Assembly (NCBI GenBank): GCA_041168905.1
Contig: JBEEJZ010000027.1
Span: 8,005 to 72,004 of the forward strand
Length of the DNA stretch: 64,000 nt
From: Pseudomonadota bacterium
GTDB lineage: Bacteria > Pseudomonadota > Gammaproteobacteria > Burkholderiales > Burkholderiaceae_C
Reading direction: 5' to 3'
Position 1 is the stretch's first letter, and each line of letters opens with the position of its first letter. Below the pieces are notes generated by a model. It ran no database searches. It was not told the origin of the DNA and was given only the letters and a program-made list of their open reading frames with translations. Below are positions 3,617 to 49,459 of the stretch, piece after piece. The position numbers were made by a program, and so were the translations under genes.

Positions 3617-4630
3617 ATGTCGATGTCCCCCACCCCTGTCATCCGGCCTGCTGCTGTGGTACCACGCAACGAGTGCCGCCCATCCCTGTCCTGCGTCATG
3701 CCGGCTTACAACGAGGCACGCAATCTGGTGCGCGTCGTGCCCGAGGTTCTGGCCGCCATGGCCCAGCTGTCTGACAACATCGAGCTGATCGTGGTGGACG
3801 ATGGCAGTCGCGATGACACGGTGCAGGTCATGCAAACGCTGTGCGCCGCACACCCGCAGGTGGTTTTTTTGAAGCTCTCGCGCAACTTCGGTAAGGAGCC
3901 AGCGCTGCAGGCCGGCATTGACGCCACCCGGGGCGACATCGTGGTGCTGATGGATGCCGACGGCCAGCACCCCACCGCCCTGCTGGCCGACATGGTGAGC
4001 AAATGGCGCCAGGGCTCGGACGTGGTGTATGCCGTGCGCAAGACACGCTCTGACCAGTCCGGCCTGCAAATCGGCCTGACCGGGTTGTTTTACAAGCTCA
4101 TCAACTGGGGCAACCGGGTGCAGATTCCGGCCCATGCCGGCGATTTCAGGCTGATGGACCGCCAGGTGGTGGAGGCCCTGAAACGCCTGCCCGAGCGCAA
4201 CCGCTTCATGAAGGGACTCTACGCCTGGGTGGGCTTCAATGCCACTGCCATCGATTACGAACCGCTGGAACGTACCGATGGCGTCTCGCGCTTTGGCTTG
4301 CGTGGCTCGCTCTCGCTGGCCATCACCGGCATTCTGGCGTTCTCGACCGCGCCGCTGCGCGCCATGACGTTTTTGGGCCTGGCCCTGTCAGCTCTCGCTT
4401 TGAGCTACGGTGTTTGGGTGGTGGGCGAGTATTTTGTGACCGGCATCAGCGTGCCGGGCTACGCCACCATCGTGGTGGGCATGATGTTTTTCAGTGGCAT
4501 CCAGTTGCTGTGCATCGGCATCCTGGCCGAGTACGTGGGCCGCATCTACGAAGAAGTCAAACAGCGCCCGGCCTATTTGATCAGTCAGCGCAGCGGTGGT
4601 GGCTTGATCAAAGCGCCCCCACAGGCCTGA
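3617..4630 (+). CDS. Family 2 glycosyltransferase, polyprenyl-phosphate sugar synthase type (ArnC/GtrB/DPM1-like)
   Basis: 337 aa. N-terminal GT-A region SCVMPAYNEARNL...IVVDDGSRDDT...VLMDADGQHP. Two C-terminal TM helices, as in GtrB/ArnC. Confidence 0.9.
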   Translation: MSMSPTPVIRPAAVVPRNECRPSLSCVMPAYNEARNLVRVVPEVLAAMAQLSDNIELIVVDDGSRDDTVQVMQTLCAAHPQVVFLKLSRNFGKEPALQAGIDATRGDIVVLMDADGQHPTALLADMVSKWRQGSDVVYAVRKTRSDQSGLQIGLTGLFYKLINWGNRVQIPAHAGDFRLMDRQVVEALKRLPERNRFMKGLYAWVGFNATAIDYEPLERTDGVSRFGLRGSLSLAITGILAFSTAPLRAMTFLGLALSALALSYGVWVVGEYFVTGISVPGYATIVVGMMFFSGIQLLCIGILAEYVGRIYEEVKQRPAYLISQRSGGGLIKAPPQA

Positions 4631-4634
4631 ACCC

Positions 4635-5018
4635 ATGGCATTGCCCTTGCCCAGCAAGTCCAGCTTGTGGTTTCTGGCTGTGGGCGCCAGCGCCGCGGCC
4701 ACCCACATGGGCGTGTTTGCCCTGACGCGTGAGGCCATGTGGCCCGAGCTGGCCAACGCCCTGGGCTTTGTCGTGGCTTTTGTGGTGAGCTTTGCTGGCC
4801 ACCGCTGGCTGAGTTTTCAGGACGCCGGCACCTCGCTGCTCACCAGCCTGGGCCGCTTTGCCGTCACGGCGCTGGCGGGTTTTGCCGGCAACGAAGTCGT
4901 GTTTGTGATCTTGCTGCGCGGCCTGGGCTGGCCGTCGCTGCTGGCGCTGTTCGTGGCTTTAGTGCTGGCAGCCGGGCAGACCTTTTTGCTGAGCCGCTTC
5001 TGGGCTTTCCGGCGCTAA
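4635..5018 (+). CDS. GtrA family membrane protein (putative lipid-linked sugar flippase component)
   Basis: 127 aa with four hydrophobic segments, ending LLSRFWAFRR as is typical of GtrA-like proteins. Lies 4 bp after the GT2 gene. Confidence 0.8.
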   Translation: MALPLPSKSSLWFLAVGASAAATHMGVFALTREAMWPELANALGFVVAFVVSFAGHRWLSFQDAGTSLLTSLGRFAVTALAGFAGNEVVFVILLRGLGWPSLLALFVALVLAAGQTFLLSRFWAFRR

Positions 5019-6521
5019 CGCACCCGCCGACTGGAACAGGTCCCAACCCACACCCTGGGCAAAGGGTTTCCAGCCCGCAGCCACCGCACTGGCCGACTCG
5101 GCCTTGCGTGCAATCAGCCAGTTACCCGGAGCTTGCGCGGCGCTGGCCAGCACCTCTGGGCCTCGCAAAACCTTGGCGGCCTCGGCATCGAAGTCAGCGC
5201 CCTCAAACAGCTCGCGCTCCCAGCCATCACGCGCGTTCGCACGGCGCTCGGCCCAGTCGTGAATCACGATCATGGGCTTGGCCGCCTGCGTGTAGAACGG
5301 CAGGTCGTAGGGAAATCCACGCAAGGCGTAGACGGTGTCACTGGGCCGGGCCTCGCAGGCCAGAACGCGAGCCATGTCTTGCGAGCGACCAGGAGCGGTG
5401 ACCCCGCCCACCATCAACACCAGGGTGGTGGCGATGCCGATGTTGAGCAGCACCAGCGCCCCAAACAGCTTACCCGCCCAGGCACGGTGTGCCAGCGTGC
5501 GCTCCCAGCCCAGTGCGGCCAGCCAGGCCACCGGCGGCATCACCGGCAAGATGTAGCCCACCAGCTTGGAGCTGGGCAGCGAGAAGAACACTGTGATGCA
5601 CAGCACCCAGATCCAGCACAGGCTGAGCCAGGGGCGGGTCGCCAGAGATGCTGCAGCTTGAGTCCCGCGCTTGCGCCAGGCAGCCAGGGTCCAGAAAACC
5701 CAGGGGAACATCAGCAGGCCGATCGACAACACGTAAAACCACATCGGCTGGGGGTTGTTGAAGGTCTTGGCGGTGTAGCGTGCAAAGTGGTGATGCACAA
5801 ACATGTAGTTCAGCAGGTCGGGGTATTTTTGCTGGGCCAGCGCAAACCAGGGCACCACGACCGCCGCAAACAAGGCCAGGCCACTGAGCCACGGCAGGTA
5901 CAGCATCTTGCGCAGCTGGCGTGTCCAGACCAGCCACACCAGCAGCACCAGACCGGGCAAGGCAATGCCGATCAGGCCCTTGCTCATCATGCCCAGGCCA
6001 CAGGCCACAAAACCCAGGCGCGCCAGGTTGGCATGGGGTTTGTCGCCCGCCTGAAACGCAAAGGCAAAACACCAGATGGCCACGCTGATCCAGGTCGCCA
6101 CCTGCATGTCGTGATTGACATACTGGCCACCCACCATGAAGGCCAGACCACTTGCCAGCATGATGGCGGCACGTCGGGCCAGGGCCTCGGTGGCCACAAC
6201 GCGTGCGGCCAGGTACAGCGCCACGGTCATCAACCCCACATGCAGGGCGGGCACAAAGCGCAAGGCAAACTCGTTGACGCCAAACACCGTGAGGGACAGC
6301 GACTGCAGCCAGTGCAGCAAGGGCGGTTTGTGAAAAAAGGGCAGGCCATTCAGGCGCGGCGTGAGCCAGTCGCCATGGAGCAGCATGGCACGGCCAATGT
6401 CGCCGTAACGCCCCTCGTCGGGCACCGCCAGCGGCCGCAACAGCGACAGCACCAGCAGAAAAGCCCACAACAGGCCCATCGCGAGCCAGGATATTTGTCG
6501 TTCAGTCAGGTATTTTTTCAC
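4959..6521 (-). CDS. GT-C fold glycosyltransferase, family 39 (ArnT/PMT-like, polyprenyl-phosphate-sugar dependent)
   Basis: 520 aa, polytopic. First periplasmic loop carries the PDEGRYGDIGRAM acidic motif typical of ArnT/PMT enzymes. Soluble C-terminal domain. The 3' end overlaps the gtrA-like 3' end by 60 bp. Confidence 0.85.
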   Translation of the reverse strand: MKKYLTERQISWLAMGLLWAFLLVLSLLRPLAVPDEGRYGDIGRAMLLHGDWLTPRLNGLPFFHKPPLLHWLQSLSLTVFGVNEFALRFVPALHVGLMTVALYLAARVVATEALARRAAIMLASGLAFMVGGQYVNHDMQVATWISVAIWCFAFAFQAGDKPHANLARLGFVACGLGMMSKGLIGIALPGLVLLVWLVWTRQLRKMLYLPWLSGLALFAAVVVPWFALAQQKYPDLLNYMFVHHHFARYTAKTFNNPQPMWFYVLSIGLLMFPWVFWTLAAWRKRGTQAAASLATRPWLSLCWIWVLCITVFFSLPSSKLVGYILPVMPPVAWLAALGWERTLAHRAWAGKLFGALVLLNIGIATTLVLMVGGVTAPGRSQDMARVLACEARPSDTVYALRGFPYDLPFYTQAAKPMIVIHDWAERRANARDGWERELFEGADFDAEAAKVLRGPEVLASAAQAPGNWLIARKAESASAVAAGWKPFAQGVGWDLFQSAGALAPESPEAAQQKGLPGCQH

Positions 6522-6567: not shown

Positions 6568-7665
6568 TCAGAAAACCCCTAACCAGGCCAGGGTCGCCAT
6601 GCCGTAACGCTTGCCAAACTTGCTTGCGGTCATGGGGTTGTAGGCAAACGGTATCTCGCCCACAAACTGATTGCTCATCAACTGTCCGCGCAAGACGACG
6701 GCTGAATGTGGGGCTATTCGACGTGAAATTTCTGCAACCCAGGTGTTGTTCGCCGTGTATGCAACACCACCCAAATTTCTGATCGTGTCGTCCACCTCGC
6801 TACGCTTCAACTGTTGGCGGAAAAACCCGCCACGTAGCATCCAATCCTGGTTAAACCATTGCAAACTGCCACCTACCAACCAGTAGTTTGCGCGGTAAGA
6901 AACATGAAGGTCTGCGTCGGTTGCGGCACTGAAAGTATCAAGTACCGGCCCCGACGCGCTACAGGTATCGACCAGGGACCCGTTCAAGGCACTGCCGGCA
7001 AAAGTTAACCTGTAGGTGCAGCCGCTTCCAGTTTTATACAGGGCAGTTACCCCGCCGGCGCCCACGCGGCTTTGCCCAAAACCGCCCAATGCGTTCACAC
7101 TCACCGAGTCTGACAAACGCCACGTGCCGACCACATCCAGTTGCTTTTGGAGGTCATGGGCGGAATCCACGCGCACGTCATATACCGTTTTCCCCGCCAC
7201 GGTGGTGGGTGACGACTTCACGAGCTCGGCTGAGGCATTGCCCCACACACTCATGCGGACAGCCAAGTGCCCCGGGCTCGCCGCATTACCCAGTAAGCGG
7301 TATTGACCTGCCACTTGCCAACTGTCAATGTATGCGCTGTCAGTGCGGTAATCGATGCGCCGCCGCCAGAGCTGCCCAGACGCTGACCAGTCGTCCGTGA
7401 GCCGATAGCTGACAAGCACATGTTGTCCCTGATAGTCGCCGACATTTGTGCCAGCGTACGCGGGGTCACTCGACCGAAGATGCAAAAAATCGAGCGTGTC
7501 GTTAACGGCATCAACGCCCAGCTCCAGACGAAGTTGACCCGGACCTCCAGGCAAGTCGGCCGACAGCAAGGCATCCAGCGGCGCAGCGCACAAAGTCAGC
7601 GGCAATATGAATTGCACCGCGACAAGAGGTTGCAAATATTTCGTTTGCATCGTGGTTTGCAGCAA
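6568..7665 (-). CDS. Predicted outer-membrane beta-barrel protein, family unknown
   Basis: 365 aa with a signal-like N-terminus (LQPLVAVQFILPLTLCAAP). Alternating amphipathic pattern and Tyr/Gly/Trp-rich segments. C-terminus is ...ATLAWLGVF (terminal aromatic). Lies 35 bp downstream of the giant lipoprotein gene on the same strand. Confidence 0.55.
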   Translation of the reverse strand: MLQTTMQTKYLQPLVAVQFILPLTLCAAPLDALLSADLPGGPGQLRLELGVDAVNDTLDFLHLRSSDPAYAGTNVGDYQGQHVLVSYRLTDDWSASGQLWRRRIDYRTDSAYIDSWQVAGQYRLLGNAASPGHLAVRMSVWGNASAELVKSSPTTVAGKTVYDVRVDSAHDLQKQLDVVGTWRLSDSVSVNALGGFGQSRVGAGGVTALYKTGSGCTYRLTFAGSALNGSLVDTCSASGPVLDTFSAATDADLHVSYRANYWLVGGSLQWFNQDWMLRGGFFRQQLKRSEVDDTIRNLGGVAYTANNTWVAEISRRIAPHSAVVLRGQLMSNQFVGEIPFAYNPMTASKFGKRYGMATLAWLGVF

Positions 7666-7700
7666 CCGGGGCGACAGGCCTGGCCCCGGTTACCCAACAT

Positions 7701-10700
7701 TTATTTCACGATGACGCCAGCACTGCCGTAATTGCTGACCGATGCCCCTCGGGCGTCAGTGATAGCCAAAGGTACGCCCGTCATGCCAAAGCTTATGGAA
7801 TAAGTGCCGACGGGGTCGGTCAACGCACTTGCAGCAGGAAACAGCGAGCTCAATAGGGTATTGAGACCACCCATATTGAGGTTGACCACACCATTGGCGG
7901 ATGTCGTCAACAAGCTACTGACGTTGCTCAAGGTCGCGCTTCCCACATGGGTGGTGACATACAACTTGGCGGCAAGTGGAATGCTCAAAACCGGCTTGCC
8001 GCTGACCGTGGCGACTTGAATCTGATCAAACCACAGATTCATATATCCGTACCTTGGCGAGCCGCGATAGATGGTCACAGTGCCTTGCGCTATCGCGCTG
8101 ACCGGCGAGCCCGTCGCCTGAAAACTGATGGCGGTCAGTGGGTTGCCCTGCAGATTGACTTCACCGTAGTAGGTGTAGGGGTTGGGTGCCGTCACAGCAT
8201 TGTTATTGAAGGCCAAGGAGGCCAGATCAAGTTGCAGAGTGGTGGCGGGCAGGGTGGCCGGCGTAATGGTCGCCACAGACTCCACAAAGAAGTCTGCCCC
8301 CAGCGCCAGGTGTGGCCCATAGTCGGTGTAGCTGCTGTTTTCGATGACCGGCAAAGTCGCCCCCAACTCGGTGCTGATCGCCACGGGTACGCCCTGGATA
8401 CCAAAGCCCACTTTGAAGTTGCCTGTTGTGGCGATATCGCCTCGATTGGGCTGAATGGACTTGACCAGATCCAGCAAAGCCGTCATGTCGATAGTCGCCA
8501 CACCATTGGCATCCGTCGACAACAGACTACTGACGTTGCTGAAGGTCGCTTTCAGATCAGGCTGATAGCTGTAACCTTGACCAAAGTACACCAACATCCT
8601 GGCTGTTGGTGGGACCGTGACACTTGGCTTACCCGCAATCGTCGCGACATCGACCTGGTCTATCACCAGTTGTAGCTGCCTACTGTCGCTGCGAGTGATG
8701 CTCACATTGGCTGAGCCCCGCGCCGCTGCGGGCGTACCACCTAACTGCATGGACACTTTGGTCAGTGCACCTGCAATAGTGATGCTACGCAACGCGGTGT
8801 TGGCAGTGGGTGCCCTCAAGGCTTGGTCGTTCACCAGGATGGTGGTCAACTTGATTTCGAGTGCATTGACATTCGGCACAGCGTTATTCAGTAGCGTGGC
8901 GGCAGATGCCCCGACAGCTTGCAAACCAGCCAGATTCAGACAGGTTTGGGTACAGGCAAAAGAACTGATGGGCAGCAGCAGGTGCCTCCTATTGGCCTGG
9001 ACAACATTGACCAGGGAGTTGGTGTACTGGCGTACGGCCTGACTCATTTCCACAGCTCCGCCGGTGGTGGTCAGGGCATTGGCTGAGGCATTGGCCACCG
9101 CTCGTACGGTCACGGAGATCAGGTCGCCGGACAATGCCGCAACAGCTGAGCCCTTCAGTGAGCGACCTGAATTTGTCACTGTTTTTTCAACCGCTGCATC
9201 CACCAGCTGCCTGACCGATGTTGGATCAGAAAAATTGACGGTCAGGGTAGCTAGCGTATCAGCCGTGGCACGCAATGCAGACAAGTACAAGGCCCCCTCG
9301 TAACCATTGCCGCCGGAGGCAACCGATACCGCCGCGGAGAGTTGCTCCAAGAGTGTCTCTATGGCAGAAGTGGTTCGGGCGAGTTGCGGCAGAGTTGCCA
9401 CGCTAGCGACCGGATCAGCCGTCAGCAAATTCACGCCAGGCAGCCCCAGCGAATTTGCCAAAAGAGTGTTCGCCGCGTCTACATTGCTTGTCAAGGCAGG
9501 CGACGGTATGCCACTGACCGGGGTGGGCATGGCCTGGTTCACACGGGTCATGACCAAGGTACTCAAAGGTGTGATTTGGGTAGCTCCGGCGGGCGCACGG
9601 AGTTCGCCACGGAATGGCAAGAGCGTCGCCATATCCACACCGCCACTCGCGCACAGCATGTGTTGGCCCAGGGTGGCGTCAAACACATAGCCCCCACTGC
9701 CGTTGGTGGTGGTGTTGGGCTCTGCAGCATCGCAAATACGGTCGTCATTCAGGTCAAGCGTGACCCTGGCGCCAATGATGTAGCCATCTGCCACACGACC
9801 ACTCACCGTGGCAGCACCTGCAGCAGCGCCGTTGCACACGTAACCTTGAGAGCTGACTTCAGCCGCATCCAAGACATTGTTGGCATTGGCATCCGACCCC
9901 GATGCCAGACGACTTCCACCGTAAGCACAATTGCCGCCCGCCGCTTCCGGCATCACTGTGAATAGCGCATTGCTGCCAGCTGCGCCTGTGGCACCGGTCG
10001 CGCCCGTCGCACCGGTTGTCCCAGCCGCACCAGTAGCGCCGGTTGTACCGCCACAAACATAGCTGGTCGAGGTCACCTCGGAGATATCGAGAACACTGTT
10101 GGTATTGGCATCCAAGCCCGCAGCCACCTTGGAGCCGCCTGCGGCGCAATTCAAGCCCACTGACTCTTGGGACACCACAACCAGTGTGCTCAAACCGTTA
10201 CTGCCGTTTGAACCGTTGGAGCCATTTGTTCCGTTGCTCCCGTTCGCGCCATCCAGGCCGTAGCAGACCTGTTGCGAGTTCGTACCTTCAGCATCATCCA
10301 GCCGTCCGTTGCCGTTGGTATCGATACCAGACATCACCGTGATCCCCCCGTTAGGGCAGGCATCAAAAGCCACTGCGGCAAGCAGACTCACAGCCACTGA
10401 TTTATTCCCAGGTGGCGTAGATACAGACCCAAAACTGTTGACCGGTAGGTTGATGTCAGAGAAATCTGTGTGGGCTGCCGCAAAGCTCTGGCCGGCTGCG
10501 GCAAGCAAGGTCCCCACGTCGGAACTACCCACGACACAGCCGCTGGCAGGATTTGCCAAACAAGACTTCATCTCCAATAGTGCGGCCGATAAGGTGCTGC
10601 CAGCGGGCTTGTTGGCCAAGTACTGAGATACGAGGGCTAGCGCCAACGCGTAGGTCCGCTGAGAAACCGTTGACCCGGCGGGTACGTTCAGCGCATCAAC

Positions 10701-11207
10701 CGGTAGCGTGTACATGATGTCAAACACGCCAAAGTTGTTTTGTACGGTGTTAACTGCTGCGTCGATGTTTGCGGTGTTCAAGCCATCCGGGGACGCGAGA
10801 GCCAGACCATGAGCCAGTTCAGTGAGCGCTGTAATTGCCACTGTTTTGGAACCTGTCACGCTTCCCAGCACGGAACGAAGTGGTGTGGACAACGCCGTGG
10901 CACCCCGTGTCGCCTCGTCTACATAAGTGCCGCCACTACTTTCAAGCAGGACCGGACCGGTGTAAGTGCCGATGTCAACAGAAAAAGCGCCACTGGCATT
11001 GGTTGATGCGCATTTGCCCAAGGACGCGCCCTTGGCTGCGCCCGTGACGGCGTAGGCACACACGGCTGAGTTATTGACGGGCCCTTTGCTGACAACGCCG
11101 TTAAGAACGTACGTCGAAGGTGTAGAACCACCACCACTGCTGCCACCGCCACAAGCGGCAAGCGCCGCGACCAAGCCGGCCGCAACCAATAGACGGACTA
11201 ATGTCAT
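7701..11207 (-). CDS. Very large (1168 aa) repeat-rich lipoprotein of unknown function
   Basis: Signal peptide plus lipobox LAAC (Cys19), then a Gly/Ser linker. Two carboxypeptidase-regulatory-like beta-sandwich-looking segments (YVLNGVVSKGPV..., VSGRVADGYIIGARVTLD). Three 32-aa Cys-to-Cys modules, two collagen-like G-X-Y runs, and a tandem duplicated C-terminal module of about 205 aa. No catalytic motif recognised. Confidence 0.8.
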   Translation of the reverse strand: MTLVRLLVAAGLVAALAACGGGSSGGGSTPSTYVLNGVVSKGPVNNSAVCAYAVTGAAKGASLGKCASTNASGAFSVDIGTYTGPVLLESSGGTYVDEATRGATALSTPLRSVLGSVTGSKTVAITALTELAHGLALASPDGLNTANIDAAVNTVQNNFGVFDIMYTLPVDALNVPAGSTVSQRTYALALALVSQYLANKPAGSTLSAALLEMKSCLANPASGCVVGSSDVGTLLAAAGQSFAAAHTDFSDINLPVNSFGSVSTPPGNKSVAVSLLAAVAFDACPNGGITVMSGIDTNGNGRLDDAEGTNSQQVCYGLDGANGSNGTNGSNGSNGSNGLSTLVVVSQESVGLNCAAGGSKVAAGLDANTNSVLDISEVTSTSYVCGGTTGATGAAGTTGATGATGATGAAGSNALFTVMPEAAGGNCAYGGSRLASGSDANANNVLDAAEVSSQGYVCNGAAAGAATVSGRVADGYIIGARVTLDLNDDRICDAAEPNTTTNGSGGYVFDATLGQHMLCASGGVDMATLLPFRGELRAPAGATQITPLSTLVMTRVNQAMPTPVSGIPSPALTSNVDAANTLLANSLGLPGVNLLTADPVASVATLPQLARTTSAIETLLEQLSAAVSVASGGNGYEGALYLSALRATADTLATLTVNFSDPTSVRQLVDAAVEKTVTNSGRSLKGSAVAALSGDLISVTVRAVANASANALTTTGGAVEMSQAVRQYTNSLVNVVQANRRHLLLPISSFACTQTCLNLAGLQAVGASAATLLNNAVPNVNALEIKLTTILVNDQALRAPTANTALRSITIAGALTKVSMQLGGTPAAARGSANVSITRSDSRQLQLVIDQVDVATIAGKPSVTVPPTARMLVYFGQGYSYQPDLKATFSNVSSLLSTDANGVATIDMTALLDLVKSIQPNRGDIATTGNFKVGFGIQGVPVAISTELGATLPVIENSSYTDYGPHLALGADFFVESVATITPATLPATTLQLDLASLAFNNNAVTAPNPYTYYGEVNLQGNPLTAISFQATGSPVSAIAQGTVTIYRGSPRYGYMNLWFDQIQVATVSGKPVLSIPLAAKLYVTTHVGSATLSNVSSLLTTSANGVVNLNMGGLNTLLSSLFPAASALTDPVGTYSISFGMTGVPLAITDARGASVSNYGSAGVIVK
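9975..10052 (-). repeat. Coding triplet-repeat tract (collagen-like GGTTGATGAAGTTGATGATGATGAAG)
   Basis: aa 386-411 of the lipoprotein. An imperfect 9-nt periodicity is visible in the DNA. Confidence 0.8.
10194..10250 (-). repeat. Coding triplet-repeat tract (GANGSNGTNGSNGSNGSNG)
   Basis: aa 320-338 of the lipoprotein. My translation of the reverse complement of 10194-10250 confirms it. Confidence 0.8.
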
Positions 11208-11337
11208 GAATCCTCCCTGAACTTACAAAAGTGGCTTGTTTGTTTTAAGTTTGCGCCAACCAGCCACTATCGGTTGAGCGTCAACAGCTGAGTTGCCGGC
11301 CTCATATCTCACAGGCAATTGATGCTGATTCGTAAAT

Positions 11338-11356
11338 TATACGAATTAGTGTGTAT
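11338..11356. promoter_or_regulatory. Candidate operator: inverted repeat ATTCGTA-N5-TACGAAT
   Basis: 7-bp perfect arms with a 5-bp AT spacer. Sits 34 bp upstream of the XRE regulator GTG start, in the AT-rich divergent intergenic region shared with the lipoprotein gene. Confidence 0.4.
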
Positions 11357-11389
11357 GTGAAATAGTGGTACTTTGGGACATTCACCGGC

Positions 11390-11626
11390 GTGAATCAGCC
11401 CCTCAGTAGAACCTTTGGCACATGCGTGCGCACCTTGAGGCAGGAGCGGGGGTGGACGCAAGTGGAGTTCAGCGAGCGGTGTGGCTTCTACCAAACCTAC
11501 CTAAGCCGCATTGAAGGCGGCCAAGCCAATCCGACACTGAACGTGATAGAAGTTATTGCGATTGGCCTTGGCATGACAGTTTTTGAGTTGTTCGAAGCTG
11601 TCAGGCAGCGGGCTGAGCAGGGGTGA
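11390..11626 (+). CDS. XRE family helix-turn-helix transcriptional regulator
   Basis: 78 aa. The sequence LRQERGWTQVEFSERCGFYQTYLSRIEGGQANPTLNVIEVIAIGLG is a classic Cro/C1 HTH_3 pattern. Confidence 0.85.
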   Translation: MNQPLSRTFGTCVRTLRQERGWTQVEFSERCGFYQTYLSRIEGGQANPTLNVIEVIAIGLGMTVFELFEAVRQRAEQG

Positions 11627-11667: not shown

Positions 11668-12852
11668 TCACCCCAGGCCGAGCAAGCCTTTCAGGGCGGG
11701 GCTGGGACGGTGGGCCATCACCTGGTCTTGAATGGCCTTGGGCGACAAGCCAAACACACGCTCCATCACCCGGGCATACACCGCAGCCAGGTCGATGCTG
11801 GCAGGTAAGTCACGCCCCTCAAAGAGTTGCTCTTTTTTCAGGCCGCGCCAGTCGGCATACACCCGGGAGCCGGTCAACAAGCCGCCAGCCAGAAAGCAGC
11901 AACTGCCCACACCGTGGTCGGTGCCGGTGGTGCCGTTTTCAGCTGCAGTGCGACCAAACTCGGTCACCGTCACCACCAAGGTGTTGACCCAGGCGTCACC
12001 CATGCCCTCTTTGTAGGCGCCGACCAGAGCGTCCAGTTCGCCCAGCCGGTCGGCATGGGTGCCGCTGTCTGCGCCCTGGCTGGCATGGGTGTCAAAACCA
12101 TGTTGCATATCGATCAGCCCAACGCGGGGGCCGTTGGGTTCACGCATCTCCTTGGCTGCCAGGCGGGCCAGTTGGGGCACCGCACGCGCGTTCTGGAACG
12201 AGGCGTTGTTCATGGCGCCCTGGCGCAGCGCCAGGTTCTCGGCCCGGATCACCGGCGCATAGGCAGCCAGCATGGGGTCATCGGCCCACAAGGCAGGCAA
12301 AGCATCTGCCACGCTCGCGCTCAGAGGCGGCATCCAGTTCGGAAACTGGGTGGTGGCTGCCGGGTTGCCGCGCAGGATCAGCGGCATGGGGATGGAAATG
12401 GACACACCTCCGCTCTGGCCGGAGGCCTGCATGGCGCGCCCGATCCAGCCCGAGGCGGACGTGTAGGGCTTGGCCATGCCGGTTTGCATGATGTCCTGCC
12501 CCTCAAAATGCGAGCGCCCCGTGTACCCAAAGCCAGTGCTGTGCACCACCGCCAGATGACCCGCCGCCCACAGGCTGTGCATGACCTTGAGCTGGGGGTG
12601 CAGCGCAAACGAGCCATCCAGCGGCAAGGCATTTTTAACAGCGATGTTGGCGCGCATGCTCTCGTACAGGGGGTCGGCCACCGGCGGCGCGGCGGTCAAG
12701 CCATCCATGCCACCCCGCAGCAGCACGACCAGCAGCCGGGGCTCATCTGCCTTGGGAGACGCCAGCGGCTCACGCAGGCCAGCAAAACTGAGGGCAGCCC
12801 AGGCGGCACTGCGCTGAATGAATGTTCTTCTTTGCATGGGCATTAACTCCAC
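11668..12852 (-). CDS. DUF1501 domain protein (Tat-exported, sulfatase/alkaline-phosphatase-like fold)
   Basis: 394 aa. Twin-arginine leader MQRRTFIQRSAAWAALSF. C-terminal signature VTVTEFGRTAAENGTTGTDHG. Confidence 0.85.
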   Translation of the reverse strand: MELMPMQRRTFIQRSAAWAALSFAGLREPLASPKADEPRLLVVLLRGGMDGLTAAPPVADPLYESMRANIAVKNALPLDGSFALHPQLKVMHSLWAAGHLAVVHSTGFGYTGRSHFEGQDIMQTGMAKPYTSASGWIGRAMQASGQSGGVSISIPMPLILRGNPAATTQFPNWMPPLSASVADALPALWADDPMLAAYAPVIRAENLALRQGAMNNASFQNARAVPQLARLAAKEMREPNGPRVGLIDMQHGFDTHASQGADSGTHADRLGELDALVGAYKEGMGDAWVNTLVVTVTEFGRTAAENGTTGTDHGVGSCCFLAGGLLTGSRVYADWRGLKKEQLFEGRDLPASIDLAAVYARVMERVFGLSPKAIQDQVMAHRPSPALKGLLGLG

Positions 12853-14321
12853 AACAGGGCAGGACTGACATGCAGCAGACCATAGGCCTGGCGATGGTCA
12901 CCTTTGGCGAGCGCGGCGCGGATGGGCTCACTGCCCAGCCCAGCAGCGGGCAGGTATTGATCAATTTGGGTGCGCAAACCCTCCACGGCGCGGTCGGGGT
13001 TGCTTATCAATTCGCGCAGCAGCACCGGCATCACCCGCACCCGCCGGTCGAGCATCTCCTTGGAAACCCAGTCACTCGAGCGGATCGGCCAGCCATTGGG
13101 CTGCGGGCACCGTGGCAAAGGCTGGCCCAGGTCGCCCAGCAAATAAAAGGTCTTGGTTCCACCTCGGTCGTCCAGCGGCACCACACGCGGCACCTCCACC
13201 CCGGTCAGGGTGAGGGTTTGCCACAGCCAGGTCTCGGGCGAGGTGAATTTGCGTGTGTTGTCGATGTGCGCCCAGCAGGCCTCCACCACCGCCTGGTGCA
13301 CCTTGGGCAAATCGCCCTGACTGCTGACAAAGGCTCGCTGCACATGGGCAACTGCAGCAGGCGGCGGCTCGTCGTCCAGAAAATACACACACAGCTTGTG
13401 CGCCAGATGCCGGGCCGTGGCGGGATGGTTGGCCAGGTCTGTGACCAGATCTTCCAGCTTGGCCGAGGGCCGAAACAGCGCGGAATAGGTCTTGCCCATG
13501 ACCTCTTGTGCCCCCGGCTCGTGATGGTTGAAGTCGAAGTAAGTACCCAGGGGCACACCTGCCTTGCGCCATTTGTCGGGCTTCATGTCGCGCCAGCCCG
13601 TCAGGATCAGGGTGGTGGCTTCCACATCTTTTTGGGTGTAGCCACTGGCCGGGCTCAGGGTAAACAACTCGAGCAGTTCGCGGCCCAGGTTCTCGTTGAT
13701 GCTGTCCTTCGTCCATTTTTCCCGGGCGGCTTTGGAACGCGGGCCGGTGTTGCGGTTGTTGTCCAGGTACACCAGCATGGCTGGGTGGGTGACCGCATGC
13801 CAGAGCATCTCGCGAAAACTGCCAGTCATCTTGTCGCGCAGCGAACGCTGGTAGGGGCCGATGAGCACATCGTTGTTTTGATTGCCCGGTGCCACCATGA
13901 AGTGGTTGGTCCAGAAGTGCCAGAAACGCTCAAACACCGGAGCGCGCCCGTAAACCGCCGTGGTGGCCCGCGCTTGCACTTCTTTCCAGTGCTCCATACG
14001 GCTGTAGGGAATCTCCACATCGCGCTTGCGCTCAGCCTCGAACTGGGCGCGCGGCAGCGTCTTGCCTTTGTCAAAGGAGGCTCTTTCTGCCTCCTGATGA
14101 CCTTGAAACGCCGTCATCACATCGTCCATGGACCAGAGCAGTTTGACCCAATCAGGCAGGTCGGAGCGTCGGGACCCGTCGCGCTCGATGATGTCAATGG
14201 GCGGCGCTTTGAGCAGTTGCGCCTGCGCCCACGCCACCGGATCGGCAGGCAGGGCCTGGTCGGCGGGCAGACCGAAAGCCACGCGCCGTGTGAATTTGCC
14301 GATGAGATGTTGCTGAGTCAT
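12843..14321 (-). CDS. DUF1800 domain protein
   Basis: The track ORF runs to 15074, antisense to lemA. I start at ATG 14321 (MTQQHLIGKFTRRVAFGL). The signature INENLGRELLELFTLSPASGYTQKDVEATTLILTGW is typical of DUF1800. Overlaps the DUF1501 gene by 10 bp. Confidence 0.8.
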   Translation of the reverse strand: MTQQHLIGKFTRRVAFGLPADQALPADPVAWAQAQLLKAPPIDIIERDGSRRSDLPDWVKLLWSMDDVMTAFQGHQEAERASFDKGKTLPRAQFEAERKRDVEIPYSRMEHWKEVQARATTAVYGRAPVFERFWHFWTNHFMVAPGNQNNDVLIGPYQRSLRDKMTGSFREMLWHAVTHPAMLVYLDNNRNTGPRSKAAREKWTKDSINENLGRELLELFTLSPASGYTQKDVEATTLILTGWRDMKPDKWRKAGVPLGTYFDFNHHEPGAQEVMGKTYSALFRPSAKLEDLVTDLANHPATARHLAHKLCVYFLDDEPPPAAVAHVQRAFVSSQGDLPKVHQAVVEACWAHIDNTRKFTSPETWLWQTLTLTGVEVPRVVPLDDRGGTKTFYLLGDLGQPLPRCPQPNGWPIRSSDWVSKEMLDRRVRVMPVLLRELISNPDRAVEGLRTQIDQYLPAAGLGSEPIRAALAKGDHRQAYGLLHVSPALLWS

Positions 14322-14456
14322 CAGGTGGCTCCCGGTGGGTACCTGCCCGAATGACGACCATCGGGGCTGGCGCTTTGCAGGCGGTGATTCTAGGAGCGGG
14401 CAACTGTGTGCGCCGTGCGGCCACAATAGCCTCATCAAGGACATTCGGAGCAGATC

Positions 14457-15029
14457 ATGAACATGGCAACTGGGGTTTTGTTGGGTGTGGCGGTGCTGGT
14501 GGTGGTGTATGTCATCAGTGCCTACAACCGGCTGGTGGCTGTCAAGCACGCCGTGGACAAGGCCTGGGCCAATATCGATGTGCTGCTCAAGCAGCGGCAT
14601 GACGAGCTGCCCAAGCTGGTCACGGTCTGCAAGGAGTACCAGCAATTTGAGCAAAGCACCTTGCAACAGGTGATTGCAGCCCGTGCTCAGGTCCAGACGT
14701 CTCGGGAGCAGCAGGACATAGCAGCCCTGGGCCGTGCCGAGGGCAGCCTGCGCAGCGGCCTGGGGCAGATTTTTGCGGTGGCCGAGGCCTACCCGGAGCT
14801 GCGCGCCAACGAGAGCTTTCAGCAATTGCAAAGCCGCATCAGCCAGCTGGAAAACGCCCTTGCCGACCGGCGCGAGTTTTACAACGAGGCCGTCAACATC
14901 AACAACGTTCGCATCGAACTCTTCCCCGACCGACTGATTGCACAGCGCTTTAACTTTGGCCCACGCGCCCTGCTGACCTTTGCTGCCGAAGAAAAGACCG
15001 ATGTGGACCTGAAGGCCCTGTTCCGCTAA
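14457..15029 (+). CDS. LemA family protein
   Basis: 190 aa with an N-terminal TM helix, then YNRLVAVKHAVDKAWANIDVLLKQRHDELPKLV...RREFYNEAVNINNVRIELFP. Confidence 0.9.
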   Translation: MNMATGVLLGVAVLVVVYVISAYNRLVAVKHAVDKAWANIDVLLKQRHDELPKLVTVCKEYQQFEQSTLQQVIAARAQVQTSREQQDIAALGRAEGSLRSGLGQIFAVAEAYPELRANESFQQLQSRISQLENALADRREFYNEAVNINNVRIELFPDRLIAQRFNFGPRALLTFAAEEKTDVDLKALFR

Positions 15030-15033
15030 GACC

Positions 15034-15930
15034 ATGATGCAGCGTTGGGGCCGCGCCTTGCGGCTGTGGCTCACATCTGGCGGCTATGTGATGTTGCTGA
15101 TCCTGGGGGCACACCTGGGCACGCCACAGGGCTGGCGCCTCAGTGTGGGCCTGACGGCTTTGATGGCACTGCTGGCGTGGCAACTGGTGCTCAAGCGCGC
15201 TCGCGCCATGGCAGACACCCCCACCTCCCACATCGCCTCGGCGGCCCAGGGCTACGTCGAATTGCAGGGCCAGGGTGCCCAGTTTGAGGGCTACCCGGTG
15301 TATGCACCCCACCACGGCCTGCCCTGCCTTTGGTACCGCTACAAAGTAGAAAAGCGGCAAGGCGACGATTGGAAAACCGAGTCGCAAGACGAATCCACCA
15401 CCTCTTTTTTCATTGACGACAACAGCGGCCGATGCACCGTCGACCCCGAGGGCGCCGAGGTGTTGCCCCAGCACAGCGAAACCTGGACCCAGGGCGACCG
15501 CCGCTACACGCAGGCGCTGATCCTGCCGGGTGAGCCGCTCTACATCCTGGGCGACTTCAAAACCCAGGGGGGCGACAGTGCCGATCTGAGCCTGAGGCGC
15601 GACGTCAGCGAATTGCTGGAGGACTGGAAGCGCGACATGCCAGCCTTGGCCCAGCGTTATGACAAAAACGGCGACGGCCAACTCGATCTGCAGGAATGGG
15701 AACAGGCCCGCAGCGACGCCCGACGCGAGGTGGAGCAGCTGCACCGCGACATCCGCGCCCAGCCGCACACCCACACCATCGGCCTGCCCACCGACGGCCG
15801 GCCCTACCTGATTTCATCGCACGCCCCAGAAAAACTGGGCCGCCGTTTTCGCCTGTGGGCCTACGCCCATGCCGGGGTGTTTTTGCTGGCTTTGGGGGGA
15901 TTGGGGTATGCGTGGCAGGCACATGCCTGA
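15034..15930 (+). CDS. GIDE (bacterial E3-ligase-like) domain membrane protein with an embedded EF-hand
   Basis: 298 aa with two N-terminal TMs. GIDE-like core GYVELQGQGAQFEGYPVYAPHHGLPCLWYRYKVEKR...FFIDDNSGRCTVDPEGAEV. Canonical EF-hand loop DKNGDGQLDLQE (15661-15696). C-terminal TM helix. Confidence 0.7.
   Translation: MMQRWGRALRLWLTSGGYVMLLILGAHLGTPQGWRLSVGLTALMALLAWQLVLKRARAMADTPTSHIASAAQGYVELQGQGAQFEGYPVYAPHHGLPCLWYRYKVEKRQGDDWKTESQDESTTSFFIDDNSGRCTVDPEGAEVLPQHSETWTQGDRRYTQALILPGEPLYILGDFKTQGGDSADLSLRRDVSELLEDWKRDMPALAQRYDKNGDGQLDLQEWEQARSDARREVEQLHRDIRAQPHTHTIGLPTDGRPYLISSHAPEKLGRRFRLWAYAHAGVFLLALGGLGYAWQAHA
15848..15915 (+). repeat. Direct repeat, copy 1 (3' end of the GIDE gene)
   Basis: 68 bp matching 16928-16995 with 3 mismatches, aligned by eye. 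The copies are spaced exactly 1080 bp apart. Confidence 0.9.
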
Positions 15931-18749: not shown

Positions 18750-20216
18750 CTATCGCCCAGGTAGCGCCGTGGGTACAGCCAACCTGGTTACCGTCTCTGC
18801 CAGGCCTGCTACCGATTGCGTGTTTTGCCACGCCAAGTATTCAGACCGGCGCAGTCGGTAACGCGCGATACTGCCCTCGTGCAACTGCTGCAAGGCAGTC
18901 ATCAGCACTGACGCAAACGCAGCTCGATCGGCCTCCTCAGCATATGCAACAGACAGCTGAGCAATGAGTTCTCGACCCGGTTGCTTTGCACCTTTGACAA
19001 CCGCCTGTACCGCTTGAATCAAGGCCTCACGGTACTTGATCTTCAAGGGGTCTGGCTCCACCATGGTTTGCGTGATGGCCAAGTAACGCTGACAAGAACG
19101 CTCGTAGGCCCAAACAAACACATCCCGCAACAACTCAACCTGGTTGAGCTCGTAAACACCCAACGTACCCTCAATGTAAGCACGCTCCGGAACATCGATA
19201 AACGACAAGGGGCACAGGTTGTGTTTGATCAGCGGGATATTTGCACCAATGCGAGAAACCCGCTTGTTCACATCTTCAAAGGGCTGCAGGTAGGGCAGCT
19301 GCACCATCAGGAAGAATGCCTGTTCGAAGGGGTCCGGGATGGCAGCGGCTTTGTCCAACAGAAGCAGAAAACTATCCTCAATTACTTGGGGCAAAGCCAG
19401 AGGGTGAAACACGGTGCCCGATACCTCGACTGGTCTGCGGCGCAACCTGCCGCTGGCTTGCGGGTCGCGCATCAGGTCCTGGGACAACACAGCGTGCAGG
19501 TTTTTGAACGTAAAGGCATCAAAGCCCACCTCATTCACGTCCTCAACCAGCATCTCGATAGCCGCCTTGTGGTTCAGAATCATCTGAGTCTCGATAGCAT
19601 CCTTGCCGCGAGCAATCTGGCCGAACTCGATCAAGTTCTGGGTATCGAGTCGGCTGTAGGTGTTGCCTTCCAACTTGGATGAGGCCCACGACAGATCCAC
19701 CAACAGCCGTCCCAGGATTTCGCGGGCGTAGGTGCCCGCCGGGCGCTCGCTCTCAGGGGTACGCCCCATATCGTGCAATTGACGGCGCAATGAGTCCGGC
19801 AAATAGAAACTGGTGCCAGGCTGGTAAGCCTGAAGAAACTCCCGCTGATAGCCCACTGGGCGACGGTGCATCAAGGCGCGGCGGACCTGATCACGAACGG
19901 CCGCGCCCTCCGCAGACACTGGTACGTACAACTCCGGTTCAGCAGTAGCCGTGGCCGTTGGGGTCTCTACACCTGCGAGCTGAATTACATCCTCTGATAC
20001 CGCCTTGTAGACCAAGGCGACGCTTTCACCCTCAGTGCGCAGTCGTTTTTCCGCAACGAGCTGGCCCAACCGTCGCTGCAGCGTGCGACGGTTGGGCTTG
20101 TGTGCGTTGAGCCGATCCAATTCAGCTTCAATGGCGGCAATACCAGCCCCATTGGGAAGTCCTGCCACGATGGCCTCAATCTGCAGGAGTTCTTCGGTTG
20201 ACTTGGCGCGTGGCAT
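18750..20216 (-). CDS. Fic/DOC family protein with N-terminal wHTH-like region and a degenerate active-site motif
   Basis: 488 aa. Inhibitory-helix-type motif SSKLEGN (S-x3-E-G). Fic loop reads QPFEDVNKRVSR (19251-19286), versus the canonical HPFx[DE]GNGRxxR. Confidence 0.8.
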   Translation of the reverse strand: MPRAKSTEELLQIEAIVAGLPNGAGIAAIEAELDRLNAHKPNRRTLQRRLGQLVAEKRLRTEGESVALVYKAVSEDVIQLAGVETPTATATAEPELYVPVSAEGAAVRDQVRRALMHRRPVGYQREFLQAYQPGTSFYLPDSLRRQLHDMGRTPESERPAGTYAREILGRLLVDLSWASSKLEGNTYSRLDTQNLIEFGQIARGKDAIETQMILNHKAAIEMLVEDVNEVGFDAFTFKNLHAVLSQDLMRDPQASGRLRRRPVEVSGTVFHPLALPQVIEDSFLLLLDKAAAIPDPFEQAFFLMVQLPYLQPFEDVNKRVSRIGANIPLIKHNLCPLSFIDVPERAYIEGTLGVYELNQVELLRDVFVWAYERSCQRYLAITQTMVEPDPLKIKYREALIQAVQAVVKGAKQPGRELIAQLSVAYAEEADRAAFASVLMTALQQLHEGSIARYRLRRSEYLAWQNTQSVAGLAETVTRLAVPTALPGR

Positions 20217-48804: not shown

Positions 48805-49056
48805 ATGGAAGCCATTTATGCCGATGTCATGGTCAGCATGTCCGAGTTCAAAAAAAACCCGGCGGCTGTTTTGCGTGCAGCCCATAGCCGGCCAGTAGCG
48901 GTTTTGAACCACAACAAGGCCGCGTTTTACATGCTGGAGCCCGCCTTGTTTGAGGCCATGCTGGAAGAGCTGGCAAATCAGGAACTTGGCCGCACGGTGC
49001 TGGCTCGTATGGGGGAGCGAGCACAAGCAATCGAGGTAGATATCGATGCCATCTGA
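48805..49056 (+). CDS. Phd/YefM (StbD-like) type II antitoxin
   Basis: 83 aa. The sequence VSMSEFKKNPAAVLRAAHSRPVAVLNHNKAAFYMLEPALFEAMLE is typical. Overlaps the toxin gene by 11 bp. Confidence 0.85.
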   Translation: MEAIYADVMVSMSEFKKNPAAVLRAAHSRPVAVLNHNKAAFYMLEPALFEAMLEELANQELGRTVLARMGERAQAIEVDIDAI

Positions 49057-49459
49057 GGGCACGCCAGCACCCAGCAAACACAAGTACCGGCTGCAGTTTG
49101 TGCCCAGCGCTTGGGACGAATGGCAAAAGCTGGATGGATCGGTCAGAGAGCCCTTGCGAAAGTTACTCAAAAAACGCTTGGACCAGCCCCATGTTCCGGG
49201 CTCTGCACTCCGTGGGCCACTGCTCGGACACTACAAGATCAAACTCAGGAAACAGGGCTACCGTCTGATTTATGGGGTCGAGGATGATGTGCTCATCGTC
49301 ATGGTGATGGCGGTAGACAAACGCGAGGACAGCGTGGTGTACCAATCCGCTGTTTCGCGAGTGTCTGAGAAGGTGGCTCAATATGTCAAAACAGGCCCCA
49401 AGCGAGCCAAGCCCAGAGCAGGTGCATCAGCGTTGATCACCATCAACCACCAACCCTAG
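49046..49459 (+). CDS. RelE/StbE family type II toxin with a C-terminal extension
   Basis: 137 aa. The sequence YRLQFVPSAWDEWQKLDGSVREPLRKLLKKRL...GHYKIKLRKQGYRLIYGVEDDVLIVMVMAVDKRE is the RelE/StbE core. About 30 extra Lys/Ala-rich residues follow. Confidence 0.8.
   Translation: MPSEGTPAPSKHKYRLQFVPSAWDEWQKLDGSVREPLRKLLKKRLDQPHVPGSALRGPLLGHYKIKLRKQGYRLIYGVEDDVLIVMVMAVDKREDSVVYQSAVSRVSEKVAQYVKTGPKRAKPRAGASALITINHQP

Follow-up and report, generated by a model that had tools for sequence, protein, structure and literature searches.

A conserved gene pair for a large lipoprotein and a dedicated outer-membrane barrel in a Burkholderiales genome

The gene pair and its two products

We describe a two-gene cassette on contig JBEEJZ010000027.1 of a Burkholderiales bacterium (assembly GCA_041168905.1), located in a stretch of 64,000 nucleotides (contig positions 8,005 to 72,004) that was analysed as a whole and is called the window hereafter; all coordinates count from its first letter. 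Both open reading frames (ORFs) lie on the minus strand, a gene for a lipoprotein of 1168 aa upstream and a gene for an outer-membrane beta-barrel protein downstream (Table 1). Together they are a real, self-contained and co-inherited two-gene module, and probably an uncharacterised way to place a lipoprotein on the cell surface. A preceding reading made from the nucleotide sequence without database searches (the sequence-only reading) had reported two same-strand ORFs, one for a 1168-aa lipoprotein with the lipobox LAAC and Cys19 and one for a signal-peptide protein ending in AWLGVF, and we found both exactly where it had placed them. For the barrel gene two starts can be considered, leaving a gap of 35 nt (TTG) or 50 nt (ATG) to the lipoprotein gene; the ATG at 7650 (360 aa) is more likely than the TTG at 7665 (365 aa), and it is also the start called on the identical public contig Ga0451756_0000099. 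The spacer contains a GC-rich hairpin whose 3' arm overlaps the TTG candidate. This hairpin could tune how strongly the two genes are expressed relative to each other or shield the upstream mRNA. A terminator scan reported nothing in 7666-7700, and consensus scans for promoters and terminators gave matches no more commonly than in shuffled sequence.

The barrel protein has a signal peptide and a mature part of about 335 aa, which ends in ...LAWLGVF with a C-terminal Phe. Its AlphaFold2 model, built on a 31-sequence alignment, is confident, with a predicted local distance difference test score (pLDDT) of 86.2 and a predicted template modelling score of 0.79. The model comprises about 12 long transmembrane strands, a count taken from DSSP secondary structure and not from coordinates, and no periplasmic domain. 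The strands begin at residue 45, right after a short APLDALLSA segment; an extracellular insertion (about residues 203-256) is structured and carries a conserved Cys, and a short helix (residues 291-297) is found in the penultimate extracellular loop. Conservation in the family alignment (A1) is found at the mature N-terminus (A28, P29, D31 and L34, motif APLDALLSA), at polar residues inside the strands (D52, H82, R102, Q121, D171, R288 and R326) and in the last extracellular loop (QFVGEIPFAYN), which suggests that the lumen is specific and occupied, and not a pore for general diffusion.

A Foldseek search against the PDB ranked 12-stranded polypeptide-translocator barrels highest, the best matches being EstA, AaaA, NalP, EspP and FapF with a root-mean-square deviation (rmsd) of 7-9 Å and template modelling (TM) scores of ~0.45-0.57 (EstA E=2.5e-12, rmsd 7.7; NalP TM 0.46/0.57, rmsd 7.3; FapF rmsd 8-10 Å). 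The alignments to OmpG, FadL, TodX and porins had an rmsd of 16-23 Å. By sequence, the window protein matched nothing in Pfam (E<=1), NCBIfam or PDB sequence and profile searches, and 31 relatives gave only sporadic, sub-threshold matches to barrel families (Porin_4 once, Porin_7 twice, E=0.02) and none to MipA or OmpW. The protein had been expected to stand outside the porin, MipA and OmpW-type families, and these scans agree. In a word-indexed database we found 92 close homologues, every one annotated as hypothetical, and a profile run exhaustively against 1.84 billion representative proteins yielded 371 clusters at E<=1e-3; judged by these searches the barrel family is small. Two of its members look like fusions: P0194 joins cadherin and He_PIG repeats to only about the last 100 barrel residues, and P0189 a patatin fragment and a lipoprotein-like helical stretch to the barrel N-terminus. 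They look like fragments or chimeras, were not used as Rosetta stone fusions and are probably products of assembly or gene calling, a natural fusion being conceivable.

The lipoprotein begins with MTLVRLLVAAGLVAALAAC, in which the lipobox L-A-A-C sets Cys19 with Gly at position +2. It continues through a flexible tether into the domain series listed in Table 1. The first beta-sandwich (residues 33-125) resembles the second (467-545) only weakly (z=2.3), and we regard it, on the basis of a shared motif and fold, as a weak extra copy of the N-terminal module of the family. The DUF7151 domains pass the Pfam threshold with 132.5 bits against a gathering cutoff of 27.2; each has one Cys pair and a 12-residue EF-hand-like loop of the pattern DxNxNxxLDxxE. 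They are linked by collagen-like Gly-x-x runs of 8-9 triplets each (residues 317-340 and 387-413), which do not reach the Pfam Collagen threshold (22.3 versus 27.2 bits). The helical bundle is the best-modelled part of the protein, with long helices and a pLDDT of roughly 75-89. The two C-terminal copies are unmistakably related, with a local alignment score of 246 against 36±6 for shuffled sequences (z=34).

The composition of the mature lipoprotein is unusual for the window. Charged residues account for 10% (18.3±3.9% in window proteins), A, T, S, G, N and V together for 61% (42.8±3.9%), and the 14 Cys form seven pairs, each within one domain. Taken with the EF-hand-like loops, the collagen-like spacers, a local structural resemblance to a phage tail-fibre model and the size range of the family, the protein looks extracellular and tolerant of changes in length. 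Its full model is of moderate quality (pLDDT 63); homologue searches gave at least 10 and at least 13 proteins, so that the alignment used for structure prediction was shallow. No enzymatic, adhesin or autotransporter motif had been recognised before in either protein. This still holds insofar as none was matched and no enzymatic fold was seen, while the lipoprotein is not free of motifs, given its three DUF7151 domains and Gly-x-x runs.

Occurrence, relatives and composition of the pair

To survey the pair we scanned one genome per species (185,579 species) with the barrel motif and obtained 33 loci (L001-L033). The carriers in Burkholderiales include Collimonas, Glaciimonas, Noviherbaspirillum, Paraherbaspirillum, Roseateles and Aquabacterium, and further carriers belong to Gallionellaceae, Rhodocyclaceae, Hydrogenophilales, Moraxellaceae (Fluviicoccus, Aquirhabdus) and Magnetococcales. 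Wherever at least 1.5 kb of DNA was available upstream of the barrel gene, which makes a locus informative, a lipoprotein gene of the same family was present upstream on the same strand (27 of 27 loci, drawn from four orders). The spacers between the two genes mostly measure 6-260 nt, the exceptions being L033 (868 nt) and L021, where one Wzy_C-family gene intervenes. When all ORFs of the loci were clustered all against all, the lipoprotein and the barrel were the only recurring families, and a Pfam tally of the 122 flanking proteins found no family in more than two of them; a conserved third component is rejected on both counts. In three further metagenome contexts the same pair is found amid unrelated housekeeping genes. 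Across 22 pairs the pairwise divergence of the lipoproteins correlates with that of the barrels (r=0.73, Mantel p<=0.0005). The suggestion of the sequence-only reading that the barrel is a dedicated partner is thus borne out by the strict pairing, the lack of any other conserved neighbour and the co-divergence.

In a few loci polysaccharide genes are seen close by. Collimonas sp. OK242 (L033, 9986-15030) has wza, a low-molecular-weight phosphatase gene and wzc directly after the pair, a Magnetococcales metagenome-assembled genome has a 1066-aa Poly_export/SLBB gene after it (L020, 11156-14356), and another has the Wzy_C gene, with tetratricopeptide repeats (TPR), between the lipoprotein and barrel genes (L021, 7919-9766). 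Such a link to polysaccharide export is occasional and not conserved.

The partner lipoproteins range from ~470 to ~1170 residues through added or duplicated modules, the C-terminal domain being kept throughout. Most of them have about 500-620 aa with one sandwich, a helical region and one C-terminal beta-domain. The long variants (the window protein, L028 and P0094-P0098) carry in addition an N-terminal block of sandwich, helical region and DUF7151 as well as a second C-terminal domain, and in L028 a second tblastn match indeed covers the duplicated C-terminal region. The closest orthologues of the window lipoprotein are 82-94% identical (P0094, P0093), others 46-49% (P0095, P0096, L028). The lipobox followed by CGGGG... 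recurs among the partners, and comparable tethers of 12-30 residues rich in G, S, T, P and A are found across the family. According to tblastn against the loci, the part common to every partner starts at the core beta-sandwich (residue about 462-465 of the window protein). DUF7151 is present only in long variants (P0094-P0100) and absent from all ~500-700-aa partners scanned, and so decorates the module rather than defining it; a full-text literature search found DUF7151 mentioned in no paper.

Apart from DUF7151, Pfam, NCBIfam and PDB sequence and profile searches with the window lipoprotein and 24 relatives returned nothing consistent, and the models TbpBBD, lipoprotein C and slam_lipo matched none of these proteins. 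The AlphaFold2 model and Foldseek gave no fold class for the C-terminal beta-domain. With the full-length model, Foldseek found only generic tandem Ig-like proteins in the PDB, a single one of them at E<=0.001 (4e-4), and a single match in BFVD, a local one between the DUF7151 region and a phage tail-fibre model. Pfam likewise had no consistent match for the sandwich module, only sporadic sub-threshold ones to SdrD_B or CarboxypepD_reg. We considered this module as the element that binds the barrel and rejected it, as an MbnP-like lipoprotein and another large protein carry it too, neither of them with such a barrel nearby. Since the sandwich occurs without such a barrel it is not the determinant of pairing, and what is specific to the module are the helical and C-terminal parts; the sandwich looks like a general N-terminal spacer of outer-membrane lipoproteins. 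The MbnP-like lipoprotein (L039, 6001-7875) is headed by the sandwich (GKVVDGY...GGTD..TG) and lies by a MauG/CCP peroxidase and a TonB-dependent receptor.

The sequence-only reading had judged by eye that both genes are AT-richer at third codon positions than their surroundings. Calculation confirms this impression: the lipoprotein gene has a G+C content at third codon positions (GC3) of 0.63 and the barrel gene one of 0.64 (z = -3.35 and -3.13), compared with a mean of 0.779 and a standard deviation of 0.045 among the other 46 ORFs of the window that are confidently coding. Total GC is 0.575 in the cassette and 0.622 in the rest of the window. Elsewhere, too, the pair is often lower in GC3 than its neighbours (L001, L002, L005, L007, L009, L023, L024 and L028), with no such drop at L010, L019 and L025. 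Low GC3 in many loci, a patchy taxonomic distribution and unrelated genomic contexts together fit repeated horizontal transfer, and horizontal acquisition of the pair is plausible. No mobility genes, insertion scars, integrase, tRNA or repeat boundary were seen at the pair. A search for an empty site among 69 metagenome loci with relatives of the neighbouring DUF1800-DUF1501 genes found none that keeps the downstream synteny, the relatives being too distant (the closest, one truncated contig aside, is 68% identical). The window holds further sequence of atypical composition: two stretches, around 16.5-18 kb and around 19-20 kb, drop to a GC of about 0.55, a 488-aa Fic-domain gene (18750-20216, minus strand) has a GC3 of 0.65, and a small ORF at 49046-49459 one of 0.64.

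Neighbouring genes

The genes around the cassette were identified as argS, GT2, GtrA, GT-C/PMT_2, DUF1501, DUF1800 and a divergent gene of the XRE type with a helix-turn-helix (HTH) domain. The identities proposed earlier for argS, GT-C, DUF1501 and XRE proved correct. The AT-rich spacer and the XRE gene, which had been taken as the boundary of the cassette, are both present but are a local feature only and are not conserved with the pair: no XRE homologue is found beside the pair in any other locus, so the gene was rejected as a component of the module and is a local neighbour and possible local regulator outside it. Within the spacer a perfect 19-bp palindrome, ATTCGTAAATTATACGAAT (11328-11346), overlaps a minus-strand TATAAT and is a candidate XRE operator; a scan for consensus promoters found no full match in 11208-11392. 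Further upstream, the DUF1800-DUF1501 genes (11668-15074, minus strand) form a strongly conserved pair, side by side in each of the 69 related metagenome loci whose sequence is long enough.

The barrel gene is immediately followed by a Gtr-like glycosylation trio (PMT_2, GtrA and GT2; 3617-6521). GC3 of these genes is normal (0.79-0.81), and they are therefore probably resident genes and not members of the cassette. The Ser/Thr/Ala-rich lipoprotein might plausibly be a target of glycosylation.

Table 1. Coordinates of the gene pair, the parts of the lipoprotein and the adjoining features in the window.
Feature	Position	Strand	Basis or remark
Lipoprotein gene, 1168 aa	7701..11207	-	ORF and translation; public contig Ga0451756_0000099 calls the same 1168-aa gene
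Signal peptide and lipobox, residues 1-19	11151..11207	-	Read from sequence
Gly/Ser/Thr/Pro-rich tether, residues 20-32, GGGSSGGGSTPST	11112..11150	-	pLDDT <50 over residues 1-31
First beta-sandwich module, residues 33-125	10833..11111	-	AlphaFold2 secondary structure
First helical region, residues 127-258, low-confidence model	10434..10829	-	AlphaFold2
Three DUF7151 domains, residues about 270-458	9834..10400	-	Pfam PF23657, E=4.8e-39, three stretches
Core beta-sandwich, residues 467-545, then LRAPAGATQITPLSTLV	9573..9809	-	tblastn, invariant positions of alignment A2, AlphaFold2
Core helical bundle, residues 547-776, Ala/Thr/Ser-rich	8880..9569	-	AlphaFold2; conserved in A2
Core C-terminal beta-domain, residues 783-978, common to the whole partner family	8274..8861	-	A2, AlphaFold2
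Tandem duplicate of the C-terminal beta-domain, residues 991-1168, in long variants	7704..8237	-	
Intercistronic spacer	7666..7700	-	9-bp GC-rich hairpin AACCGGGGC-N10-GCCCCGGTT without T-run, read from sequence
Partner outer-membrane beta-barrel gene	6568..7665 from TTG (365 aa) or 6568..7650 from ATG (360 aa)	-	
Divergent promoter region, AT-rich, GC 0.449	11208..11392	.	Between lipoprotein and XRE genes
XRE-type HTH gene, divergent	11393..11620	+	Pfam HTH_31 and HTH_3
GT-C/PMT_2 gene	4959-6521	-	Begins 46 nt past the barrel stop
GtrA-family gene	4635-5018	+	
GT2 gene	3617-4630	+	

Relation to known systems and possible role

The known routes of lipoproteins to the cell surface are Slam, i.e. 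the type XI secretion system (T11SS), LptDE, complexes assembled by BAM, the type II secretion system and autotransport of the NalP type; our literature searches returned known routes only. In its logic the pair resembles Slam/T11SS, in its barrel fold the type V autotransporters and FapF. As with Slam and its cargo (e.g. TbpB, fHbp, HpuA), one outer-membrane barrel gene adjoins one lipoprotein gene, and in the lipoprotein the lipidated Cys leads into a Gly-rich tether. T11SS cargo proteins have variable N-termini, a common C-terminal beta-domain and a gene beside that of their outer-membrane protein (PMC12282271, PMC7857515). The differences are considerable. Slam combines an N-terminal periplasmic TPR domain with a predicted 14-stranded barrel (PMC7857515), whereas the window barrel has about 12 strands and no TPR domain, and DUF560 was not matched at E<=1 in it or in 31 relatives, nor was a match found in NCBIfam. 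The cargo of T11SS ends in an eight-stranded TbpBBD or lipoprotein-C barrel domain (PMC12282271), for which, as for slam_lipo, the window lipoprotein has no match. In addition, the lipoprotein gene comes first here, and the hosts are free-living freshwater and soil bacteria.

The type Va and Ve autotransporters (NalP, EstA, EspP, intimin), whose 12-stranded translocator barrels provide the best structural matches, suggest the idea of a linker lying inside a narrow barrel, which would suit the Gly-rich tether, and NalP itself is a lipoprotein passenger (PMC7857515). In contrast to them, passenger and barrel are here encoded by two genes with a stop codon and 35-50 nt between them, PF03797 is not matched, the PDB profile search finds no autotransporter, and the passenger is not a beta-helix. 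Two-partner secretion (type Vb) employs an Omp85-type TpsB of 16 strands with POTRA domains and a TpsA with a TPS domain at its N-terminus, in contrast to the ~335 aa, ~12 strands and lack of POTRA seen here; ShlB, POTRA and haemagglutination-activity domains had no match in either protein or in the relatives scanned. With FapF, the secretion channel for amyloid subunits in Pseudomonas, the barrel shares 12 strands and a conserved N-terminal segment (rmsd 8-10 Å), but the two are not similar in sequence, the neighbourhood has no fap genes, and the partner is a large folded lipoprotein and not an amyloid subunit. Physical complexes of a lipoprotein with a barrel are also known from RcsF-OmpA/C/F, in which the tether of RcsF runs through the lumen of the barrel (PMC4942254), and from LptE-LptD. 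The barrels in question, general porins in one case and LptD with its 26 strands in the other, are not encoded in a dedicated pair with their lipoprotein, and they have no homology to ours. Finally, three bona fide DUF7151 domains, short Gly-x-x linkers and the local tail-fibre match recall DUF7151 proteins on the one hand and collagen-like fibre proteins on the other, while two runs of only 8-9 triplets, below the Collagen threshold, set the protein apart from bacterial collagen-like proteins (Scl/Bcl). The sequence-only reading had compared the pair to Slam and two-partner systems without counting it among them, and rightly so, since both proteins fail the defining tests of sequence and architecture. 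Its proposal of a candidate undescribed system is likewise sustained, as neither component matches a curated family apart from DUF7151.

We tentatively propose, with a probability of roughly 0.45, that the lipoprotein is a surface-exposed, Ca2+-stabilised fibre that needs its own 12-stranded barrel for export or anchoring, with the tether held at or in the barrel and the C-terminal beta-domain as the recognised part. The lipoprotein would be a Sec substrate that receives its lipid at Cys19 and, given Gly at +2, is sent on to the outer membrane. The downstream gene would supply a small barrel of ~12 strands, the type that passes unfolded polypeptide in autotransporters and FapF, and this barrel would let the lipoprotein polypeptide cross the outer membrane and/or retain it there. 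While the lipidated Gly/Ser tether remained at or inside the barrel, the sandwich, the helical stalk and the C-terminal beta-domain would project outward as a fibre-like appendage stabilised by Ca2+, which in the window protein would also include the DUF7151/collagen-like spacers and the second C-terminal domain. By analogy with T11SS cargo, the conserved C-terminal beta-domain would be the element most likely to be recognised by the barrel. The display model draws on the translocator-like fold of the barrel, the secreted-like composition of the lipoprotein, the spacer modules, the 2.5-fold tolerance in length and the logic shared with Slam and its cargo; that the lipoprotein reaches the surface and either passes through the barrel or docks on it is a prediction from fold and composition. 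A more specific version holds that the pair is a split or 'trans' autotransporter for lipoproteins, in which a stand-alone 12-stranded barrel, unrelated in sequence to type V secretion systems and T11SS, exports and anchors a separately encoded fibre with a new C-terminal beta-domain as the export signal. This version is rather unlikely as it stands, though worth keeping in mind.

Several points weigh against the display model. The contact of the two proteins and the surface exposure of the lipoprotein are predictions from single-chain models, of which that of the lipoprotein is only moderate, and its PDB matches are uninformative beyond Ig-like sandwiches. The TM-scores of the barrel to translocator barrels are modest (about 0.45), and a 12-stranded barrel could equally pass small solutes or hydrophobic substrates. 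Moreover, the N-terminal sandwich module is also found on lipoproteins that no such barrel adjoins.

There are two alternatives, each of which we hold to be improbable, though deserving attention. The pair might serve uptake, the barrel acting as a FadL/TodX/OmpG-like channel for a specific substrate with the conserved N-terminal segment as its gate, and the lipoprotein capturing a ligand and handing it over, as in SusD-SusC, TbpB-TbpA or BtuG-BtuB. FadL, TodX, CymD and OmpG are indeed among the significant Foldseek matches, the invariant APLDALLSA at the mature N-terminus might act as a hatch, and pairs of receptor and accessory lipoprotein typically show strict gene pairing as well. Yet the FadL and OmpG alignments have an rmsd of 16-19 Å against 7-9 Å for the translocator barrels, and TonB-dependent, FadL (Toluene_X) or porin families are not matched by the window protein and by no more than two of 31 members. 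The lipoprotein furthermore has no recognisable ligand-binding fold and varies in length through spacer-like modules, and transporter or catabolic genes are not conserved nearby. A similarly low probability is given to an envelope complex that faces the periplasm, or is threaded like RcsF, with a structural or signalling role such as envelope spacing or stress sensing. Most proteobacterial lipoproteins have this orientation, RcsF is laid out in the same way, with a flexible tether ahead of a folded domain (PMC4942254), and pairing and co-divergence would suit any stable complex. A family that varies 2.5-fold in size, with spacers of the collagen-like and DUF7151 kinds and a second copy of the terminal domain, is difficult to reconcile with the fixed width of the periplasm; the very low charge and high Thr/Ser/Asn content are those of secreted or surface proteins, and the barrel lacks a periplasmic domain.

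Much less probable is that the pair belongs to a polysaccharide or glycosylation locus together with GT-C (PMT_2), GtrA and GT2, for instance as porin and scaffold for an exopolysaccharide or as a surface protein with the enzymes that glycosylate it. PMT_2 has the same orientation as the barrel gene and starts 46 nt behind it, with GtrA and GT2 next to it on the other strand, and wza-wzb-wzc, Poly_export/SLBB and Wzy_C genes follow or interrupt the pair at L033, L020 and L021, respectively. Across the 33 loci, however, no glycan-related family occurs in more than two of the 122 flanking proteins, the contexts are mostly unrelated housekeeping genes, and PMT_2, GtrA and GT2 do not share the low GC3 of the pair. 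A chance adjacency of a hypothetical lipoprotein and a general porin that have nothing to do with each other is hardly credible. It is already contradicted by the pairing, which is seen in 27 of 27 informative loci of Betaproteobacteria, Gammaproteobacteria and Magnetococcales where no other gene is conserved, and by the correlated divergences.

If the lipoprotein is indeed displayed on the surface, the pair would be an additional and independent route for surface lipoproteins and a minimal system of one barrel and one cargo for the ATP-free passage of polypeptides across the outer membrane. Several hundred protein clusters of freshwater, soil, iron-oxidising and magnetotactic bacteria that are now labelled 'hypothetical' would also gain a function, and the pair might provide a portable scaffold for surface display that is naturally adjustable in length.

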